This document shows positions 2,103 to 16,152 of a DNA stretch of 16,153 nt, in pieces. A model generated the notes under the pieces. It ran no database searches. It had not been told where the DNA came from and saw only the letters and a list, made by a program, of their open reading frames with translations. Made by a program: the position numbers and the translations under genes. The DNA comes from a bacterium (GTDB lineage Bacteria; Eisenbacteria; RBG-16-71-46): positions 1 through 16,153 of the forward strand of contig JAYWEM010000170.1 of assembly GCA_043779265.1 (NCBI GenBank). The letters are read 5' to 3'. The stretch's first letter is position 1. Each line of letters starts with the position of its first letter.

Positions 2103-2660
2103 TTACAGGCGCTCGACGAACTCGCCGGTGCGGGTGTCCACCTTCACGCGATCGCCCTCTTCGATGTAGGGCGGCACCTTGATCTCGAGACCCGACTCGA
2201 GCATCGCCGGCTTGTTGGTGTTCTGCACGGCGGCACCCTTGATGTTGGGCGTCGTCTCCGTGACCTGGAGTTCCACGAACATCGGCGGTTCGATGCCGAC
2301 GACGCGGCCCTCCCAGTAGTCGGCGTTGATCACCAGGCCGTCGGTGAGATAGCCCGCCGAGTCGCCGAGGACGTCGCGCGTCAACTCGACCATCTCGTAC
2401 GTCTCCTGGTTCATGAAGTGGAAATCGTCGCCGGCCTTGTAGCTGAACTGCAGCCTGTGCTGGTCGAGTTGCGCCTTCTCGAGCTTGTCGTCAGTGGAGA
2501 AGCGCACATCATGATTGGAGTTGTTCTCGATGTTGACGAGCTTGGCCTGCACGAAGCCGCGCAGATTGCCGGGAGTGCGGTGCTGCATGGAGGCAACGCG
2601 ATGCGGCTTGCCGTTGTAGATCACCAGATTGCCGACACGAAGCTGGGTTGCTGCGATCAC
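2103..2660 (-). CDS. efp: Translation elongation factor P (185 aa)
   Basis: GTG start with GGAGG 5 nt upstream. EF-P motifs: QLRVGNLVIYNG, HRTPGNLRGFVQAKL, FHFMNQETYE, KPAMLESGLEIKVPPYIEEGDRVKVDTRTGEFVERL. Confidence 0.97.
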   Translation of the reverse strand: MIAATQLRVGNLVIYNGKPHRVASMQHRTPGNLRGFVQAKLVNIENNSNHDVRFSTDDKLEKAQLDQHRLQFSYKAGDDFHFMNQETYEMVELTRDVLGDSAGYLTDGLVINADYWEGRVVGIEPPMFVELQVTETTPNIKGAAVQNTNKPAMLESGLEIKVPPYIEEGDRVKVDTRTGEFVERL

Positions 2661-2783: not shown

Positions 2784-5036
2784 TCAGAAACCGAGGTTCG
2801 CCTGAAGCCGGATGTCCCTTCCGGGCGCATCAGCGTAGGCCTTGTAGCGGCTGAGGAAGTCCCGATAGCGCGTGTCGAGGACATCACGCACCAGCACCTC
2901 GATGCCGATCGTCCGACCGCCTCTCACCCACTCGAATCCCGCCGCGGAATGGACGAGCGTCCGCGCATCGGTCGCCACATCGTGCGGGTCGAGCCGGCGT
3001 TGTTCACCGTTCCACGACGCGGTGAGCGAGAGATGCGGGTGGTGCAGCCCGCCGATCTGCTCGGCTTCGTAACGGATCCCCGCCTCGATGCGCGCTGGCG
3101 GGATCCACGGCAACGGCTGGTCCCGGCTCTCGTTCTGCCCCTGCACGAGATCGGCCGAGGCGAGCACATGCCAGGCACGATCGAGATGGAGGTCGGCACT
3201 CATCTCGAGGCCGCACAAGGTCGCATCCCCCTGCACGACATCGAAGATCTGGAACCCCGACTCCGGATCGAACGCTCCGGTCGGCCGCGAATGGATGAAA
3301 CCGGCGATACGGTTCACGAATCCGCCCAACTCGCCATGGAAACGTCCCGTCTGAACGCGCAGCGCGACATCGGCGTTCAAGGACGTCTCGATCCCAAGCG
3401 CCGCGTCGCCTCGCTCGAACGCGACCGTGCCTTCGTGCACCCCATTGGAGAACAGGTCGAACGGCGACGGGGCCCGGAACCCGCGCCCGAGGTTGAGGAC
3501 GAGCGCGGCGGGCTCCGCGAGCCGATAGAGCACGCCGAGGTTGCCGGTCGCCGCCGTGTGCCGCCTCGACTGCGCTGTCACGGCCAGTCCCGGATGATCG
3601 AGTACATCGAGTGCGCGATGATCGATGCGCCCGCCCGCCGACCACCGCCAGCGACCCGCCTGGGACTCCTCGAACGCATAGAGCGCGAAGCCCAGCGTCT
3701 TCGAGTCGGGGATCAGGGCCTCGTCGCCCGAGCCCACGAAGCGCTCGCCTTGCAGTGAGGCTCCGAGCAGCCCCTGCCAACGGCCCCACGCCGCATGGTG
3801 CCAGCGCACGCCGGCGTTCCAACTGCGCGCCAGCAAACCCAGCGCGGCCTCAGAGGCTTCACGCTCCTCGAACTCGCGCCGGTCGTTCCGCTGCCAGCCG
3901 GCATCGAATCGAACGCGTCCGCCCCCGACCGGGAGCAGCACGCCGAGATGGACGAGGTCATCGACGATGCCCTGATTCGGTGTCGCGGCGGGGTCCTCGG
4001 CGGGGTCCTCGTGAATGCGGACGGTCTCCTCGCGACGAGCGTACCGAAGCGACCATGCCCCCCAGGCGCCTCGCACCGCCGACTCGAGCGAGCCCGTCGT
4101 CGCCTCGTAGCCCGTGTTGAAGAGCGAGCCGCTCGGCGCCTCGAGGTCGCCGTGCTCGCGCTTCGTGAACGAGCCGCGCAATCCGAGGCCCTCGCTCGCC
4201 GCTTCGAACCCGAAGCGCCCCTCGCGGCCGTCGCCGTTGCTCGTCCAACCCGCGCCGAGCCGCGTGCGGATGAACGCGGGCTCACCGAAGGCCGTGGGCA
4301 GGTCGCGCGGGATCACATTCACCACGCCGCCCAGCGCCTCGGACCCGTAGAGCACGCTGGCGGGCCCGCGGATCACCTCGATGCGATCCGCATCGGCCGG
4401 TTCGATCTGCGGACCATGCTCGTCGCCCCAGCCTTGGAATTCCGTTCGCTGCCCATCGGACAGGACGAGCACGCGATCGTTGCGTAGACCTCGGATCATG
4501 GGCTTGCCGACGCCCGAGCCGGTGCTCCAATTGCGCACGCCGGGAAGCGACGCGATCGTCTCGCCGAGCGAGATGGCCATGGCCTCTCGCAGCTCGTCTC
4601 CGCCCAGCACTCCCACGCTCTGCGGCGACTCGAGCGCGGTCGAGGGCACGGCGCTCGCGCTCACCTGGACCGGTGGCAATTCGACGAGCGCCTCCTTGAG
4701 GACCGCATCGAGTTTCTGCTCCCCGCCGGCCAGCGTGACCGGCAGAAGTGCTGGTCGGTAGCCGATGCGCTGGAACGTGACGCGGTAGACGCCGGGCAGC
4801 AGCCCGGCGAGGCGATAGCGACCTTGAGCGTCCGTCGCGCCCGAACGGGCGAGCTCGACGACGGCGACGGCGACATCGGGGATCGGCGCGCCCGCTCCGT
4901 CGAGCACAAGACCCGAGAGCGAGGTGCCCGACTGGGCGAACGCCATGCGACCGGGGCTCAGGAAGCAGAGGGCGGCGATGAGGATGCTCGGGAGAACGCG
5001 GCGTGATCCCGCGCTCAGACGCTCAAGAGACTCCAT
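2784..5036 (-). CDS. TonB-dependent outer-membrane receptor with N-terminal carboxypeptidase-regulatory-like domain, probably metal uptake (750 aa)
   Basis: ATG 5036 has a GAGGAG SD. Signal peptide (...ILIAALCFLSPGRMAFAQ), N-domain (GATDAQGRYRLAGLLPGVYRVTFQRIGY), plug motifs (KPMIRGL, RIEVIRGPASVLYGSEALGGVVNVI), barrel motif GFRAPS, His-bearing GWGDEHG and NGVHEG, and a terminal Phe (LQANLGF). Confidence 0.95.
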   Translation of the reverse strand: MESLERLSAGSRRVLPSILIAALCFLSPGRMAFAQSGTSLSGLVLDGAGAPIPDVAVAVVELARSGATDAQGRYRLAGLLPGVYRVTFQRIGYRPALLPVTLAGGEQKLDAVLKEALVELPPVQVSASAVPSTALESPQSVGVLGGDELREAMAISLGETIASLPGVRNWSTGSGVGKPMIRGLRNDRVLVLSDGQRTEFQGWGDEHGPQIEPADADRIEVIRGPASVLYGSEALGGVVNVIPRDLPTAFGEPAFIRTRLGAGWTSNGDGREGRFGFEAASEGLGLRGSFTKREHGDLEAPSGSLFNTGYEATTGSLESAVRGAWGAWSLRYARREETVRIHEDPAEDPAATPNQGIVDDLVHLGVLLPVGGGRVRFDAGWQRNDRREFEEREASEAALGLLARSWNAGVRWHHAAWGRWQGLLGASLQGERFVGSGDEALIPDSKTLGFALYAFEESQAGRWRWSAGGRIDHRALDVLDHPGLAVTAQSRRHTAATGNLGVLYRLAEPAALVLNLGRGFRAPSPFDLFSNGVHEGTVAFERGDAALGIETSLNADVALRVQTGRFHGELGGFVNRIAGFIHSRPTGAFDPESGFQIFDVVQGDATLCGLEMSADLHLDRAWHVLASADLVQGQNESRDQPLPWIPPARIEAGIRYEAEQIGGLHHPHLSLTASWNGEQRRLDPHDVATDARTLVHSAAGFEWVRGGRTIGIEVLVRDVLDTRYRDFLSRYKAYADAPGRDIRLQANLGF

Positions 5037-5041
5037 GGTGA

Positions 5042-5145
5042 CTCCTCGCAGGCACGTCGGACGCATGGCGTCCACGACATGCCGATCGTTGGGTGGAGGG
5101 CTCGCCGCACCACATGCGCGGCGACCACGACTCACCCGCGAGGAG
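5042..5145 (-). promoter_or_regulatory. SD-sequestering mRNA structure between leader ORF and receptor
   Basis: mRNA CUCCUCGCGGG (5145-5135) is complementary to CCUGCGAGGAG (5052-5042, contains the receptor SD), 11 bp with one G-U. It encloses two hairpins at 5102-5124 and 5051-5083. Pairings found by eye. Confidence 0.75.
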
Positions 5146-5446
5146 GGCCTCGTCCATCATGAAGCAACAGACGAGGCAGGCTCGGCGCCGCGGCGATCTC
5201 GCGCGGCTCGCTGCGCGAGCTCTCGACCGGGACCGCAAGCACGATCGGTGCCGAAGGCGGCGCGGGCGCGATCTTCGCGACCACGCACATCGAGCACGCA
5301 TCCGGCCGAGCAGCACCATCGCACTCGTCGTGATGATGCAGCGCCAGCGCGAACGCCCCGCTCAGAAGCGAGAGCATCAGGCTCAACGCGAGGAGCAGAG
5401 AGGCTCCTCGCATGGGACGCATCCCCTTGACGTGCGCGTTCGGCAT
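5132..5446 (-). CDS. DUF2946-like (CruR/CutF-type) exported leader/arrest peptide
   Basis: Hydrophobic signal segment (SLLLALSLMLSLLSGAFALA), then HHHDEC and CSMC, a 44-aa Pro/Ala-rich linker, and C-terminal RGPPRG-stop, directly upstream of a TonB-dependent receptor. Start uncertain: 5446 (leaderless) or 5413 (AAGGGG SD 9 nt upstream). Confidence 0.85.
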   Translation of the reverse strand: MPNAHVKGMRPMRGASLLLALSLMLSLLSGAFALALHHHDECDGAARPDACSMCVVAKIAPAPPSAPIVLAVPVESSRSEPREIAAAPSLPRLLLHDGRGPPRG

Positions 5447-5453
5447 GGGCCGC

Positions 5454-5459
5454 AAGCTA
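5454..5459 (-). promoter_or_regulatory. -10-like hexamer for the leader-receptor transcript
   Basis: TAGCTT 7 nt upstream of ATG 5446; only a weak -35 (TGGACG at 18 nt). Confidence 0.35.
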
Positions 5460-5493
5460 TCGCACCACTCGCGACTGCGTCCAGTCGGGGAAT

Positions 5494-7044: not shown

Positions 7045-9783
7045 TCAGTTCGACGCGCCGCGACCCGGCCCGCCACCGCCACTCACGGGTGCATTCTCGA
7101 TGCTGCGCGTCGCATCGAGCGCCGCCTTCACGCGGGCGCGCGACTCGAGCAGGTGGGCCCTCGTGTTGTCGCCGAGCGCAACGCCCGAAGCGAGCACGCG
7201 CGCACAGCGCTGATCGACGCGGGTCAGTGTGAGCCGGGCGAGCGCACGCGCGTCGTCGGGGGCACCGGCCGGTGGGTTGGTCACGAAGACCGCCATCCGG
7301 TCGATGAACGCGCGCTGCAGGTCGCGGCGCGTGTTCGGACCCTCGAGCGCCTGGAACGCCTGCGGCGAGGCGCCACCGACCTCGCCCCAGATCGCGCGAG
7401 TGAGTCGGTCGAAGTGCTCCGACATGCGGTACGGCGAGGACGTGCGGCTCTCGGACTCCTTCATGCGCGCCAGCAGCGCCGGCTGGATGACCGCACCGAG
7501 CATCGTGTTCTGGATCGCCAGAACGCGCTCGCCCCATGCATAGTCCTGCCGCTCGGCGAACGTGCCCTGGCCCATGCCCCAGTGCGACCAGCGATTCGGA
7601 GCGAGACGCATGAGCAGCGCCGGCGGCGCGGACATCGCATTGGCCGCCCACACCGTGCCGCTCAGGAACTCGAGCGCCTCGCGCTGCTTGTCGGCCGGAA
7701 CCGGGATGGCCGGGTCCCGCTCCATCGGCTGGCCGCGTTCGATGCGCGACATGTAGAGGCCGCCCATGTACTTGACCGCCATGCCCGCCGCGCGACCGTA
7801 CTCGCCGAGCGCGGTGTCCATGGCGCGGCGCAGCGACTGCAGGTCGCCCGAGTCGCCGACGATGCGTGACTCGAACTTGGGATCACGCCACAGCTTCGCC
7901 ACGTAGGCGGTGCGATCGCGGGCGTGTGCCAGCGGGTCGTCGCCCAAGTCGTAGATGTTGGTGCGCGGATCGGGAGCGAACGCCGGGTACGTGTCCTCGT
8001 CGGTCGAGTACTCGTGCCCCGGCTTCAGCGACTCGTCGGCGATCTTGCGGACGAAGGTGTAGTCGGCGTCCGGCGTCGCAGCGCCGCTCGGCGTGTAGCC
8101 GTAGCGGATCGCCCACACGTCGTACGTGCCCGGCGTCGTCGTGTAGTACTGGCCCTGCTTGGTGTGCGTCCCGTCGATGTTGGGCGTCGGGTACTCCATC
8201 ACCGAGGAGTAGAGCCCGTTCTTCTGCGTCCACGCGGCATCATGCAGGTGCGCGCGCGGCGTCGACGTGCTCGAGCGGAAGTTGTGACGCAGTCCGAGCG
8301 CGTGCCCGACTTCGTGCATGGTCACCCACACCGTGGCCGGACGCATGTACTCATCCGGCACCGGGCTGCCCGGTGTGAGCAGGCCGCCCATCAGCATCGA
8401 CATGTGCTGCATCGCGCCCGCGTCGGCGAGCGTCTGCCCCGACATGCACAGCTGGTCGAGCGTGAAGCCCTCCGGCAGGCTCTCGAGCGCGAACTGCGGC
8501 AGCGTGCTCTTGGCGATGTCCTCGGGGCCCGCGAAGCGGCGATACGTGTTCGCGTAATTCTGCAGCATCGACGCCTCGAACAAGATGTCGGAGTCGATGA
8601 TCTCGCCCGTACGCGGGTCGACGCGCGAGGGCCCGATGGCGCCGAAGGCCGGCTGCGTCGAAGTGATCCAGCGGATCGTGCTGTAGCGCGTGTCCTCGGC
8701 ATCCCAGTCCGAATCGTCCGCGGGCACGTCCTTGGCGATGATCGCGTTCTTGAAGCCGGCCGCCTCATAGGCAACCTGCCACTTCTCAATGCCCTCCTTG
8801 ATCCAAGGGCGGAACTTCTCGGGGATCGTCTTGTCGAGGTAGTACACGATCGGCTTGATCGGCTCGCTCAGCGTGGCGGTTGGATCCTTCTTCTCGAGGC
8901 GCCAGCGGTTCACATAGCGCAGCCAGAAGTTCTCCTTGTCGTCGCGCGCGAAGTCCTTGTAGGCCTCGAGGAAGTAACCGACGCGATTGTCGGCGTAGCG
9001 CGGCGCCATCGGGGCCGCCGGCAGGCGCGTGAAGGAATAGTGCAGGCCGATCGCGATGAAGCGGTCGTCGGGCACAGCCTCGAGGTCGAGCTTGGAGCGG
9101 TCGGTCGGCGAGTAGGTGAGAATCGCCTCGATCTCGGTGTTGTCCGGGAACGTCTTGGAGGAGCCCAGTGCCGAGCGGTCCTTGTCGAACCGCACCGCGA
9201 CGTTATCGAACGACTGACGGAGGCGCTCGCCCATGTCCGAGGCATCGCTCACGATGAGCGAGGCGATGTCGACCAGCACGGCCTTCGAGGAGTCATGCTC
9301 GCTCTCGATCTTGAAACCCGCGATCACGGAGTTCGGGATCGACAGCTCGCGCGCCAGGTCGATCGGCTGGCCCGGGTTGTGCGGGAACGACGGGTTCAGT
9401 TGCACGAGCAGGACGCGATCGCCGTGCCGCTCCCACTGCATCATGCGGTCCTCGTGCGGCAGTCCGCCGAGCACGAAGTTGGAGCCGATGCCGCGCGACA
9501 GACTCGTGATGTAGAGGAACGGCTTCTCGAAATCCTCCTTCGAGAGCTCCACGTACAGCACGTCCTTCTTGCGCCACAGCGTCAGGAAGCCGCTCTTCTT
9601 CTCGGCATCCTTCGTCGCCTTCTTCCACTCGATGAACGGCTTGTCCGGCGTCGCCGCGGGCGCTGCTCCGGACTTGCCCTTGTCCTTGTCCTTGGGCTTG
9701 GCGATCGCCGCCGGTGCGGAGAACGCGAGGCTCGCGAGAACAGCCGCGAGAATCAACTGGAAGGTGAGGCGACGAACGTGCAT
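7045..9783 (-). CDS. Secreted zinc-dependent metalloprotease, Met-zincin (DUF5118/DUF5117/DUF4953, EcxA-like; 912 aa)
   Basis: ATG 9783 with AGGAG SD and signal peptide MHVRRLTFQLILAAVLASLAFSAPAAIA. Motifs PRYADNRVGYF, RWRLEKKDP, DPRTGEIIDSDI, zinc site HEVGHALGLRHN and Met-turn SSVMEY. Confidence 0.95.
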   Translation of the reverse strand: MHVRRLTFQLILAAVLASLAFSAPAAIAKPKDKDKGKSGAAPAATPDKPFIEWKKATKDAEKKSGFLTLWRKKDVLYVELSKEDFEKPFLYITSLSRGIGSNFVLGGLPHEDRMMQWERHGDRVLLVQLNPSFPHNPGQPIDLARELSIPNSVIAGFKIESEHDSSKAVLVDIASLIVSDASDMGERLRQSFDNVAVRFDKDRSALGSSKTFPDNTEIEAILTYSPTDRSKLDLEAVPDDRFIAIGLHYSFTRLPAAPMAPRYADNRVGYFLEAYKDFARDDKENFWLRYVNRWRLEKKDPTATLSEPIKPIVYYLDKTIPEKFRPWIKEGIEKWQVAYEAAGFKNAIIAKDVPADDSDWDAEDTRYSTIRWITSTQPAFGAIGPSRVDPRTGEIIDSDILFEASMLQNYANTYRRFAGPEDIAKSTLPQFALESLPEGFTLDQLCMSGQTLADAGAMQHMSMLMGGLLTPGSPVPDEYMRPATVWVTMHEVGHALGLRHNFRSSTSTPRAHLHDAAWTQKNGLYSSVMEYPTPNIDGTHTKQGQYYTTTPGTYDVWAIRYGYTPSGAATPDADYTFVRKIADESLKPGHEYSTDEDTYPAFAPDPRTNIYDLGDDPLAHARDRTAYVAKLWRDPKFESRIVGDSGDLQSLRRAMDTALGEYGRAAGMAVKYMGGLYMSRIERGQPMERDPAIPVPADKQREALEFLSGTVWAANAMSAPPALLMRLAPNRWSHWGMGQGTFAERQDYAWGERVLAIQNTMLGAVIQPALLARMKESESRTSSPYRMSEHFDRLTRAIWGEVGGASPQAFQALEGPNTRRDLQRAFIDRMAVFVTNPPAGAPDDARALARLTLTRVDQRCARVLASGVALGDNTRAHLLESRARVKAALDATRSIENAPVSGGGGPGRGASN

Positions 9784-11735: not shown

Positions 11736-12719
11736 ATGAGCACGACCGGCCCGATCTCCACTTTCATGGAGCGGCACTTCCGCCACTTCAACGCAGCCGC
11801 GCTGATGGATGCTGCCAACGCCTATCGCAAGCACGTCGAGGGTGGCTCGCCGATGCTGGTGACGCTGGCCGGCGCGATGAGCACCGGGGAACTCGGCCGC
11901 TCGCTCGCCGAGATGATCCGTCAGGGCAAGGTGCACGCCGTGTGCTGCACCGGCGCCAATCTCGAGGAGGACGTGTTCCATCTCGTGGCGCACTCGCACT
12001 ACCAGCGCATCCCGAACTACCGCGAGCTGACGGCGAAGGACGAGGAGGCGCTGCTCGCGCGCCACCTCAATCGCGTCACCGACACCTGCATCCCCGAGCA
12101 CGAGGCGATCCGTCGCATCGAGAAGGCCGTGCTCAAGGAGTGGGTCGCGGCCGACGAGGCGAAGACGCCGCGCTTCCCGCACGACTTCATGTACCGGATC
12201 CTGCTGAGCGGCGCGCTGAAGGAGTTCTACGACTCGGATCCCAAGGACTCGTGGCTGCTCGCCGCGGCCGAGAGGAACCTGCCGATGATCGTGCCCGGCT
12301 GGGAGGACTCGACGCTCGGCAACATCTTCGCGAGTCACGTGATCTCGGGAGACATCAAGAGTGTCCACACCGTGCGCACCGGCATCGAGTACATGATCGA
12401 ACTGGCGTCGTGGTACACGGCGACCGCCAAGACGGACAAGAAGATCGGCTTCTTCCAGATCGGCGGCGGCATCGCCGGCGACTTCCCGATCTGCGTCGTG
12501 CCCATGCTGCACCAGGACCTCGGGCGCACCGAGGTGCCGCTGTGGGGCTACTTCTGCCAGATCTCCGACTCCACCACGAGTTACGGCTCCTACTCGGGCG
12601 CGGTGCCCAACGAGAAGATCACCTGGGGCAAGCTCGGGGCCGAGACGCCCAAGTTCATCATCGAGTCCGACGCCACCATCGTGGCGCCGCTGGTGTTCGC
12701 ACACGTCCTGGGCTGGTGA
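11736..12719 (+). CDS. Deoxyhypusine synthase-like protein (bacterial DHS family; 327 aa)
   Basis: GAGGA SD. Motifs TLAGAMST, TGANLEEDV, RVTDTCIPE, PGWEDSTLG, IGGGIAGDF and YGSYSGAVPNEKITWGK, the last equivalent to eukaryotic DHS SGARPDEAVSWGK with the imine-forming Lys retained (K299). Confidence 0.95.
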   Translation: MSTTGPISTFMERHFRHFNAAALMDAANAYRKHVEGGSPMLVTLAGAMSTGELGRSLAEMIRQGKVHAVCCTGANLEEDVFHLVAHSHYQRIPNYRELTAKDEEALLARHLNRVTDTCIPEHEAIRRIEKAVLKEWVAADEAKTPRFPHDFMYRILLSGALKEFYDSDPKDSWLLAAAERNLPMIVPGWEDSTLGNIFASHVISGDIKSVHTVRTGIEYMIELASWYTATAKTDKKIGFFQIGGGIAGDFPICVVPMLHQDLGRTEVPLWGYFCQISDSTTSYGSYSGAVPNEKITWGKLGAETPKFIIESDATIVAPLVFAHVLGW

Positions 12720-13455: not shown

Positions 13456-16152
13456 TCAGCGAGTCAGAACCAGCCGCACGCGCCGCGTGGAACCCTCGCT
13501 CGTGAGGCGGGCGAAGTAGACCCCCGCGCGCACGGCGCGCCCGCTGCCGTCTCGGCCGTTCCACCCCACGGCGCGTTCTCCCGCCACGTGCTCCCCATGC
13601 GCGAGCGTGCGCACTCGGCGGCCCTGCGAGTCATACAGTTCGAGCGTCGCGTGCGCCGCGCGCGGCAGCGTGAAGCGCAACGTGGTTGCGCCCCGCGTGG
13701 GATTCGGACTCGCCGCGGAGAGGCCGAACGTGCGGGCCGCGACGCCGTCCTCCTCGTCGATACTCGTGGTCGCTGTTCCCACCCAGACCAGATCGACATT
13801 CGAGAGATCATCCAGGATGCGATCGACTGCGAAACCCGAACCCCTCCTGACCACGCCGAACTCGTCGGCGTAGGTCCCCACATAGACGTCCTGGTTCGGC
13901 ACCGCCACGATCGCGGGCATCTCGTACTGCCAGAAGAAGTACGGCTGCAGATCGACCAGCGTGGTGAACGCCCCGGCGTCCCGCGTGACGCTCAGGAGGT
14001 TCCGCGCCGCCGTGGGGCCGGCTGGATGGCTCGTCGTGAGCCAGCTCCCGTCCAGGTCCAGCGTGAGACCGAAGAGCAAGCCACCACCCGGAGGCAGATA
14101 GCGCTGGTAGGCCGTCGGGTTCGCGGGATCGATCCGCATCAGCGAGGAGTTGGTGTTCACGCCGATGATCCCATCGGGGCTCACCACCACGCGGTGACCC
14201 ACACCGAGCGTCTGTGGACTCGTGTCGTTGAGGATCGTGGTCACCGCCCCGGTCCTCGGGTTGTACCGACGCACTCGGAGTCCGAGGCCGCTCTGGTATC
14301 CCGAGAACACCAGCGTGCTGTCGCGAAGGTCCTCCGCGACGTCGTTCGGCGTGTCCATGCCGAGCGTGGTGCCGAAGGTGGGCGGCAGGATCTGGAACGA
14401 GAGCTGGTGGGGATTCAGCCTGAAGCAGGGCTGGCCTGCGACCCAGATCGTGCCGTCGGCGGCGCGGCCCATGCCGCGCGAGTTCTCGAGTGAGCCGCAC
14501 AGGAGCGGCTGCCACCCGGTGCCGAGAGAGGGGTCCTGATAGCGAAGTCCATCGGAGTTGTGGAGGGTGACCAGGTGGTTCGCCGGCGGCAGCGGCACGG
14601 CGAGCACGCTGAGCTCGGTGACCAGCGCGTTCGAGCAAGCGCCATGACCACCGACTGCGAGCAGGTCGGTCCGGCAGGAGACCAGGTCCACGCGTACGCG
14701 GAACCGGATCACCACGCTGTCCAGCGCCGCGGCCGTTCCGCTCCACGAGATCGTGCGGGTGCCGGAGTTCCATAGCGTCCCCACCGGCGGCGTGCCGATG
14801 AAGGGCGAATCCGACAAGGTGGAGAGCTCCACCGGCAGGGCAAGCGACACGGACGCCGGGCTCGCGGACGCCGAGCTGTTATGGAGGCGAAGGTCGAGAT
14901 CGAGATCGGCCCCCGGCCGACACGCGATCATGCGGTTGTACTCGGGGGACGACCACCACTGCACCGGACCGTGGCTCGGGCTCTCGATCGCGAGTCGGAA
15001 CGGCGACGGGGCAACCGCGAAGCTCTGCGTGGAGATCGCGGTGGCCATGGTGAACGAGCAGACATTGCGCAGGAACACGGTGGTGCCACGATTGAGGAGC
15101 TCGATGGTGGCCTGCGCGCCCCGGCACGGCTTGATCGCCGTCTCGTAGACCACGTCGATCGTGGAGTTCGCGGGGACGAGCCCTTTCCAGGACAGGCTCG
15201 TGAGGCTCGAGAGCACGGAGCCGCTCGTCACGCTCACGACTTGCGCGATCTCCGACGAGACCCCCGGCTGCACGCTGAACGAGAGGCTGTCGTGGTTCGT
15301 CATGCTCATGTTGCCGATGCGCACCGTGTAGCGCACGCGGTCGCCGGGCTGAAGCGGAGTGGGGGCGAGCGCCGAGGAGAGGAGGGTCAACGACAGTCCG
15401 ATGGTCGTCGGCAACGTGACGGTGGTGATGAGAGTCGGCGAGCCCACAACGGTCCCGCCCGGCGTACCGGTGATCGAGTACGAGGCGTTCTGGATCGAGG
15501 ACACGTTGCAGCTCGCCTGCACGGTGATCGTTCGCGAGGTCTGCGAGTTCCCGTTCAGCGTGCCGAGCGCCCAGGTGACCGCCCGGGTCGATGGGTTGTA
15601 GGTGCCCGCGCCCGAAGCCGACAGGAAGGTCGCGCCGAACGGGAGGACGTCGACCATCGACACGTTGCTCGAGGCGAGGGCGCCCGCATTGCTCGCGGTG
15701 AGCGTGTACTGGAACACCGCCCCGCGAACCGCGGTCGCGGGGCCCGAGAGTGCGATGTGGAGCTCCGTGACCGGACACATCGCGTCGGCGCAGGTCTGAC
15801 CCGAGGTCCAGGTCCCCACACAGTCAGCCTGATGAGTCTGCGAACAGCCGAGCACCCCGCAGCAGGCGCCGTAGGGTGCACTCGGCACGATGCAGCTCAC
15901 GTAGGGCACGGGACCGCCGGCGAACGGGCCGGATGGGCCCCCTGTGCGGTAAACGACAACCGTGTCCGGCGTGCCCAGCTCGACGTAGGCGGCAGGGTTG
16001 TTCGCGCGCGGTGGCCCGGGGATGGAGGCCTGGCCGATCGACGCCGGGCAGAGCTCGACGGGCGAGTAGTGGGCGCCGCCGATGCCCGCGACATCGTTCG
16101 GCACCGAGGCCATGGTTCCCGCTGGCGCGAACGACATCGGGTTGAGTGGCAG
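13456..16152 (-). CDS. Large secreted/surface protein: Cys-rich GACC module, DUF11-like Ig repeats, beta-propeller-like region, C-terminal FlgD-Ig domain (5' end outside window)
   Basis: The frame stays open upstream of ATG 16137 to the window edge. Contains GACCGVLGCSQTHQADCVGTWTSGQTCADAMCP, DUF11-like YTLTASNAG...DVLPFGATFLSASGAGTY...VTWALGTL and PGDRVRYTVRIGN, and the tail SPNPTRGATTLRFTLP...LELYDSQGRRVRTL...WNGRDGSGRAVRAGVYFARL. Confidence 0.9.
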   Translation of the reverse strand: MPLNPMSFAPAGTMASVPNDVAGIGGAHYSPVELCPASIGQASIPGPPRANNPAAYVELGTPDTVVVYRTGGPSGPFAGGPVPYVSCIVPSAPYGACCGVLGCSQTHQADCVGTWTSGQTCADAMCPVTELHIALSGPATAVRGAVFQYTLTASNAGALASSNVSMVDVLPFGATFLSASGAGTYNPSTRAVTWALGTLNGNSQTSRTITVQASCNVSSIQNASYSITGTPGGTVVGSPTLITTVTLPTTIGLSLTLLSSALAPTPLQPGDRVRYTVRIGNMSMTNHDSLSFSVQPGVSSEIAQVVSVTSGSVLSSLTSLSWKGLVPANSTIDVVYETAIKPCRGAQATIELLNRGTTVFLRNVCSFTMATAISTQSFAVAPSPFRLAIESPSHGPVQWWSSPEYNRMIACRPGADLDLDLRLHNSSASASPASVSLALPVELSTLSDSPFIGTPPVGTLWNSGTRTISWSGTAAALDSVVIRFRVRVDLVSCRTDLLAVGGHGACSNALVTELSVLAVPLPPANHLVTLHNSDGLRYQDPSLGTGWQPLLCGSLENSRGMGRAADGTIWVAGQPCFRLNPHQLSFQILPPTFGTTLGMDTPNDVAEDLRDSTLVFSGYQSGLGLRVRRYNPRTGAVTTILNDTSPQTLGVGHRVVVSPDGIIGVNTNSSLMRIDPANPTAYQRYLPPGGGLLFGLTLDLDGSWLTTSHPAGPTAARNLLSVTRDAGAFTTLVDLQPYFFWQYEMPAIVAVPNQDVYVGTYADEFGVVRRGSGFAVDRILDDLSNVDLVWVGTATTSIDEEDGVAARTFGLSAASPNPTRGATTLRFTLPRAAHATLELYDSQGRRVRTLAHGEHVAGERAVGWNGRDGSGRAVRAGVYFARLTSEGSTRRVRLVLTR

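Follow-up and report, generated by a model that had tools for sequence, protein, structure and literature searches.

Stall-site proline codons of a putative RGPP arrest peptide are predicted to pair with the Shine-Dalgarno sequence of a TonB-dependent receptor gene lying downstream in an Eisenbacteria bacterium

On the minus strand of the window analyzed here, a 16,153-nt stretch of DNA from an Eisenbacteria genome, the order runs from an amidohydrolase gene (6966-5494) through a leader ORF ending in RGPPRG*, a 95-nt spacer and a gene for a TonB-dependent receptor to efp (Table 1). As judged from the sequence, the leader most likely starts at the ATG at 5446, and its end, CGA GGC CCT CCT CGC GGG TGA, was found at 5152-5132 as described in the original prediction. 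The receptor gene starts with an ATG at 5036, preceded by the Shine-Dalgarno sequence (SD) GAGGAG at 5047-5042. The top PDB match of the receptor is ZnuD (E 2.7e-18), and its best profile is the ZnuD-like NF038289 with 131 bits, far below the cut-off of 950 and any naming threshold. Among titled relatives, the nearest ones share 74% identity and bear the label Candidatus Eisenbacteria or uncultured bacterium, and its other relatives belong mostly to Gemmatimonadales, with some from Ignavibacteria/Bacteroidota and Latescibacterota. Elsewhere, the window encodes a met-zincin DUF5117/DUF5118/DUF4953 protein (7045-9780, minus strand), a large protein whose C-terminal tail is, by eye, sorting-domain-like and typical of the lineage (13456-16137, minus strand) and, on the plus strand (11736-12719), what we take to be a protein resembling deoxyhypusine synthase-like proteins. 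The gene order amidohydrolase-leader-receptor-efp-kinase is common, among the loci compared, to only one same-genus genome, and the position of efp next to the receptor gene is treated here as local synteny. A functional link to efp, whose product EF-P relieves proline stalls, was considered and set aside because, among the loci compared, the adjacency occurs only here and in that one genome and because RAPP-type arrest was reported to be EF-P-resistant (PMC12992588).

Table 1. Features of the leader-receptor locus and the evidence on which each is placed.
Feature	Positions	Strand	Basis or remark
Putative leader promoter, -35 hexamer TGGACG	5478..5483	-	Inferred; read from the sequence
Putative -10 hexamer TAGCTT, 7 nt 5' of the leader ATG	5454..5459	-	Arrangement in homologs
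Leader ORF, 104 aa, CruR/CutF (DUF2946)-like predicted arrest peptide, ends RGPPRG*	5132..5446	-	ORF, homologs
Hydrophobic signal-peptide-like segment behind a basic N-terminus	5339..5404	-	Judged by eye from the translation
Candidate metal-binding region HHHDEC...CSMC	5285..5338	-	Translation
RGPP codons CGA GGC CCT CCT	5141..5152	-	Sequence; P/A-site assignment by analogy with ApdA/ApdP
Predicted anti-SD strand CUCCUCGC (Pro-Pro-Arg codons CCU CCU CGC)	5138..5145	-	Pair probabilities of at least 0.95
Predicted multibranch arm 1: GGGU 5137-5134 with ACCC 5094-5091, encloses the 9-bp hairpin 5124-5102	5091..5137	-	Fold
Predicted multibranch arm 2: 14-bp hairpin with 2-nt bulge, places the SD beside the anti-SD	5051..5083	-	Fold
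SD-side strand GCGAGGAG, holds the receptor SD GAGGAG	5042..5049	-	Sequence, fold
TonB-dependent receptor, 750 aa	2784..5036	-	Pfam plug and barrel
efp	2103..2660	-	Sole copy in the genome; 123 nt past the receptor stop

Homologous loci were collected via the receptor and not via the leader. In the first set 69 loci were examined, from which 5 loci without upstream DNA, 2 weak partial matches and 3 duplicates had been omitted beforehand, and an upstream ORF with a terminal R[AGS]PP-stop motif was found in 61 of them; dropping 9 near-duplicates and 1 locus with an unclear start left 51 loci (set 1), with 3 starts set by hand. A held-out set from two phylum samples comprised 44 loci, 39 of them with such an ORF, and was reduced to 29 by removal of 6 duplicates of set 1, 2 near-duplicates, 1 spurious motif and 1 unclear start. 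The motif was absent from 8 of the 69 and 5 of the 44 loci, two of these having little or no upstream DNA. Over the 80 pooled loci the median spacer between leader and receptor is 86 nt. In addition, a Polaromonas receptor locus (L126) yielded no R[AGS]PP-stop motif, while a Salinibacter ruber plasmid (L127) carries an unannotated RGPP leader with a weak DUF2946 match (1195-1530) about 300 nt ahead of a TonB receptor gene, for which no pairing to the receptor start region was found.

The leader is a small, putatively exported protein with an R[AG]PP motif close to its C-terminus, RGPP being located two residues from the stop; in the 80 homologs the motif reads RAPP in 65, RGPP in 12 and RSPP in 3 cases. 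In the leader translation the last Cys of CSMC lies 44 residues ahead of the Arg of RGPP, a distance that fits the DUF2946/CruR leaders (~45 residues; the CxxC-to-RAPP spacing reported for CruR is 45, PMC9426467). In 23 of the 80 homologs a strict CxxC lies no more than 75 residues from the motif, at a spacing of 41-49 residues, and many others carry Cys/His variants. In Gemmatimonadales leaders (e.g. L010, L013, L043, L097) the CxxC is replaced, at a similar distance from RAPP, by a conserved H-x-E/D-P-x-GGC-x-x-H-x-x-x-C motif, which suggests a different set of metal ligands. With the DUF2946 profile PF11162 the leader scored 16-17 bits, below the curated cut-off of 23.7, no protein in 61 genomes of the phylum passed this cut-off, and a word search for homologs of the leader protein returned 27 candidates, none at E<=0.01. 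The RAPP/RGPP motif was reported to be insufficient by itself for arrest, which also depends on N-terminal context (PMC12992588).

The putative -35 hexamer lies 18 nt further upstream than the putative -10 hexamer TAGCTT; a consensus promoter scanner made no call on TGGACG, and TTGACG is present at the equivalent place in one same-genus locus. Among the 73 homologous loci with sufficient upstream DNA, 27 have TAnnnT 5-8 nt ahead of an in-frame leader ATG, compared to 1.7 expected. This enrichment suggests that the leader mRNA is probably leaderless, and leaderless mRNAs appear to be shared by the leader family.

In the fold of 5170-5020 the Pro-Pro-Arg codons are predicted to form an outer helix, CUCCUCGC:GCGAGGAG, which buries the receptor SD and closes both spacer hairpins. 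Every pair of this 8-bp helix (5145-5138 with 5049-5042) reached the probability given in Table 1 when four sizes of RNA, from 151 to 496 nt, were folded, and only 1 of 200 shuffles was as stable as the native 5170-5020 sequence (z = -3.24). Both hairpins that had been proposed for the spacer appear in the minimum-energy fold (5124-5102 with 9 bp; 5083-5051 with 8+6 bp and a 2-nt bulge). The 11-nt complementarity that had been noted between leader end and SD region also exists, although only 8 bp of it form in the model; an 11-bp helix was rejected, since the leader GGG, together with the stop codon's U, pairs with ACCC at 5094-5091 and positions 5052-5051 are taken up by the second hairpin. 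The 9-bp hairpin is retained in both same-genus loci, and one of these, L002, has by eye a related version of the second hairpin with altered pairs. No intrinsic terminator was found on the minus strand of the leader-receptor spacer.

The cost of opening the SD was 10.2 kcal/mol with the native CCTCCT, as compared to 6.1-7.4 kcal/mol with the other 15 synonymous Pro-Pro spellings, CCUCCU thus being the most SD-occluding of all 16. Ribosomes cover roughly 30 nt of mRNA, and the stalled ribosome was modelled by blocking from pairing a footprint that spans -14 to +16 relative to the first Pro codon. With this footprint, whose 3' edge agrees with a toeprint rule of 15-17 nt (PMC7897499), the SD-opening cost fell from 10.2 to 6.7 kcal/mol, about the same as for the 15 non-native spellings, and the cost of opening the region from SD to ATG fell from 10.5-11.6 to 4.8-7.5 kcal/mol. 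In the model the SD still remained partly paired, in a residual local hairpin that involves either receptor codons 2-4 or the spacer. Codons 2-4 (GAGUCUCUU, 5034-5024) are able to pair with the SD when the anti-SD is covered, and in the model this pairing represents a possible basal damper. When 170 ordinary genes of the genome were treated alike, 45 cost at least 10.2 and 126 at least 6.7 kcal/mol to open. The closed and stalled states therefore correspond to about the 74th and 26th percentile, so that the fold of this single locus is suggestive, not decisive, and the predicted switch is modest.

The tandem CCT codons had been called unusual here, and codon counts for the genome bear this out: CCT makes up 5.7% of 44,323 Pro codons, and CCTCCT encodes 37 of 2,400 Pro-Pro pairs and none of 136 Gly-Pro-Pro sequences in 1,731 long ORFs, which were filtered at GC3>0.8, a filter that depresses CCT somewhat. 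In the leader itself, CCT is used for 2 of the 12 remaining Pro codons. The same preference was found in homologs, where the first Pro of the motif is CCT in 28 of the 51 loci of set 1 (5.1 expected from each receptor's own codon usage), in 18 of the 29 held-out loci (2.9 expected) and hence in 46 of 80 (8 expected), leaving 34 without it. CCT occurs at 62 of 449 other leader prolines and at the first position of 14 of 87 ordinary Pro-Pro pairs in the receptors of set 1, and at the second Pro of the motif it is not in excess (10 of 51, p 0.29, set 1). On a receptor tree of 79 leaves the first-Pro CCT label changes 24 times. The homolog leaders are also C-rich (C>G skew of +0.25 over the last 90 nt), which could push CCT up for other reasons. 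Since RAPP arrest was reported to be insensitive to synonymous codon changes (PMC7897499), the CCT bias is unlikely to serve stalling and points to RNA pairing.

Covariation among homologs, which the original prediction had named as a check, was found in both sets as well as between sister loci. Leader tails formed stronger pairing with the SD of their own locus than with those of other loci (z -7.2 in set 1 and -6.5 in the held-out set), whereas two upstream controls gave z values of -0.9 and -1.2 in set 1 and of -1.9 and -1.3 in the held-out set, with one pooled value of -2.3. Likewise, pairing in set 1 was stronger than under a synonymous-recoding null (-12.65 observed versus -10.26 kcal/mol), 22 of the 51 loci falling in the best decile. 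Because related loci are not independent, SDs were also swapped within 39 disjoint nearest pairs on the receptor tree, which holds 79 of the 80 loci; the own SD was better in 29 pairs, worse in 8 and tied in 2 (p 4e-4), compared to 18:21 and 26:13 for the two upstream controls, the latter being marginal (sign p 0.027). Moreover, in 20 of the 42 pooled loci having both CCT and GGAG, the second Pro codon's wobble base and the base 5' of GGAG are Watson-Crick partners (10.5 expected; A-T 9, T-A 5, G-C 4, C-G 2), while loci without CCT have no such excess (6 of 27, 6.6 expected).

Predicted SD partners in set 1 peak at the six Pro-Pro bases. The SD folds mainly onto the codons from R to stop in 24 of the 51 loci, a count that rises to 31 when the 15 bases at the start of the spacer are included; in the other 20 it does neither. 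In 52 of 76 loci, four of the 80 being omitted for long spacers or short flanks, a footprint on Pro-Pro lowered the SD-opening cost by more than 1 kcal/mol, whereas footprints placed 30 and 54 nt upstream did so in only 15 and 11; the mean lowering was 2.5 kcal/mol, as opposed to mean changes of 0.2 and -0.2 kcal/mol with the upstream footprints. In L002 a compensatory change is found, with CGG as Arg codon and CCGAGG replacing the CGC and GCGAGG of the window, and one pair at the first Pro is lost. The other same-genus locus, L003, keeps CCTCCT, yet in the model its SD folds onto the receptor coding sequence; a stronger anti-SD is present there directly after the receptor start. Two loci without an SD, L036 and L089, retain the leader, and L089 has CCTCCT. 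The selection for RNA pairing that had been proposed from the tandem CCT codons is, at the level of sequence comparison, well supported by the codon bias, the covariation and the footprint-specific opening of the SD in homologs, and the RNA feature is real and probably selected.

The mechanism that we consider probable is a stall-operated translational attenuator, in which the Pro-Pro-Arg codons would pair with the receptor SD and a ribosome stalled at RGPP would free the receptor start. Translation of the leader would use a probably leaderless mRNA, and the leader product would be exported. By analogy with ApdA/ApdP, the ribosome would halt when the first Pro occupies the P site (peptidyl-RGP-tRNA), its footprint of about 30 nt covering the anti-SD before the SD is transcribed, so that during the stall the SD would stay free and the receptor would be translated. 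At a distance of about 44 residues from the stall site, the His/Cys cluster would then be located just outside the tunnel, where binding of a metal might release the ribosome through folding or export force. The released ribosome would terminate three codons further on, the helix would form and receptor synthesis would drop, possibly followed by Rho termination or decay of the mRNA. The direction of the response, with metal turning an importer off, is inferred from CruR. The stall-on/release-off logic matches, by analogy, the tested cases secM-secA and RGPP-secDF2, in the latter of which arrest-dependent SD release was shown for the RGPP peptide uDF_RQH (bioRxiv 2023.09.02.556018).

Similar to what is predicted for the present locus, SecM-secA of E. 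coli, as well as MifM, VemP and uDF_RQH upstream of secDF2, combines an exported leader and a RAPP-like C-terminal arrest motif with a stall that unmasks the downstream SD. In our fold of secM-secA from MG1655, a helix has its 5' arm at the arrest Pro codon and the following codons and closes a multibranch that covers the SD region of secA; here, too, computation places the 5' arm of an SD-sequestering helix under the stalled ribosome. In contrast to SecM, the leader described here has a His/Cys cluster, its Pro-Pro codons spell CCUCC, the core of the 16S anti-SD, and its target is an outer-membrane importer instead of the Sec machinery, so the locus does not belong to the monitors of Sec/YidC. 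The original prediction had also named cutF-cutO of Rhodobacter capsulatus as a precedent, and this holds in that a stall of the leader CutF, a DUF2946 protein, melts an SD-shielding stem, although that stem is described as intergenic; in addition, the CutF motif is PPP, its stall is EF-P-sensitive and induced by copper, and the target is a detoxifying oxidase (PMC9973294; bioRxiv 2025.02.05.636593). The cutF anti-SD could overlap cutF codons, in which case less would be new here.

These systems raise the alternative that the switch is real but senses protein export, as SecM does, or runs the CutF way, with metal prolonging the stall and turning the gene on. The signal-like N-terminus of the leader would suit this alternative, as would the requirement of CutF for a signal peptide together with its copper-induced stall (PMC9973294; bioRxiv 2025.02.05.636593), and strict CxxC motifs are confined to the minority of homologs noted above, many others having Cys/His variants. 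Since the downstream gene encodes an importer, neither a Sec component nor a detoxifier, and the CxxC spacing agrees with CruR, we regard it as unlikely, though the most credible of the competing explanations. As proposed, the locus is one that works like SecM and CutF within a CruR-like layout, with a leader under the DUF2946 profile cut-off. As the switch logic is already known from SecM and CutF, the attenuator would extend a known design and open no new class.

The closest layout is that of CruR (Bp2923, DUF2946)-bfrG in Bordetella pertussis, in which the leader likewise opens an operon that also encodes a TonB-dependent receptor, CxxC precedes RAPP by about 45 residues, the motif lies a few codons from the stop and the spacer is long and structured (PMC9426467); at the present locus the leader is followed by the 95-nt spacer and a TonB receptor with a metal as candidate substrate. 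For cruR, Rho termination, RAPP in frequent codons and a 45-nt 5' UTR were published (PMC9426467), whereas here the codons are rare CCT, SD pairing is predicted, the start is probably leaderless and the Pfam score is under the cut-off. CruR-type transcription attenuation, in which the stalled ribosome would block Rho and the pairing would be incidental or secondary, has a published model, a TonB receptor with a DUF2946 leader ahead of it (PMC9426467). A rho gene is present in the genome, and the C>G skew of the homolog leaders would fit Rho loading. The leader in the window, however, lacks a C>G bubble (skew -0.05; spacer 0.0), and Rho loading predicts no covariation with the SD flank of each individual locus, so that we consider this explanation distinctly improbable as the main mechanism. 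An occluded SD would leave naked mRNA for Rho, and thus both modes of attenuation can co-occur. Chance complementarity, by which any Pro-Pro would resemble an anti-SD because Pro codons are CCN (CCNCCN resembles the 16S anti-SD by construction, PMC12697547) and GC-rich RNA would always fold, could draw on the roughly one quarter of ordinary genes that are equally occluded in the model and on the many homologs that fold otherwise, but it is strongly disfavoured for the receptor family, and very improbable overall, given the about six-fold CCT excess replicated in the held-out set, the sister-pair swap in favor of the own SD and the gap to the synonymous-recoding null.

Small exported uORFs with C-terminal RGPP/RAPP upstream of TonB-dependent receptors have been catalogued across Gram-negative bacteria in a 2025 survey, which treats it as an open question if, and by what route, arrest controls the genes downstream, and in which a term search located no SD or mRNA-structure analysis (PMC12992588). 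A search of mostly open-access full-text literature found neither CCU selection at a stall-site proline nor covariation with a downstream SD, nor a secM repressor helix under that term. RAPP/RGPP leaders before TonB receptors are widespread, and Rho was held responsible in the sole receptor case tested; the pairing described here offers a sequence signature by which SD-occluding leaders might be sorted from other types. The attenuator further predicts that synonymous changes at the two Pro codons should derepress the receptor and leave arrest untouched.

Somewhat tentatively, and with more doubt than confidence, the observations may be joined into a wider reading, in which RAPP/RGPP metal-sensing leaders across several phyla would act mainly by SD occlusion with the anti-SD in their stall-site codons. 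CCU in the P site would be selected because it lets Pro-Pro spell CCUCC, the A-site Pro codon would co-evolve at its wobble base with the SD flank, and the systems would feature a leaderless mRNA, a metal other than copper and a ZnuD-like importer; a single hexamer would then be both the parking place of the ribosome and the repressor strand. The claim that RGPP codons double as anti-SD is supported for the Pro-Pro codons of this receptor family, whereas proteobacterial DUF2946 leaders mostly use the codons that follow. Among 19 proteobacterial plasmid or chromid DUF2946 loci, 16 had motif and CxxC and 15 of these a usable downstream start, several of which were set by hand. At least 4 ribosome-binding-site (RBS) bases pair with the codons from R to stop in 10 of the 15, and pairing with the own RBS was favored (z -4.2, in loci that are close kin). 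The Pro-Pro bases are used substantially in only 2 of the 15, and CCT encodes the first Pro in 4. In these models the wider rule is an anti-RBS beneath the stalled footprint, of which the Pro-Pro version is strongest in the present receptor family. In three Burkholderiaceae loci, L129, L132 and L146, DUF2946 leaders are located ahead of TonB receptors, that of L132 being annotated as a copper receptor, and no canonical SD is present; their Pro-Pro codons, CCG CCC GA, complement a conserved CUCGGGC just 5' of the receptor ATG, and the corresponding helix is predicted in L129 and L146 and hardly in L132.
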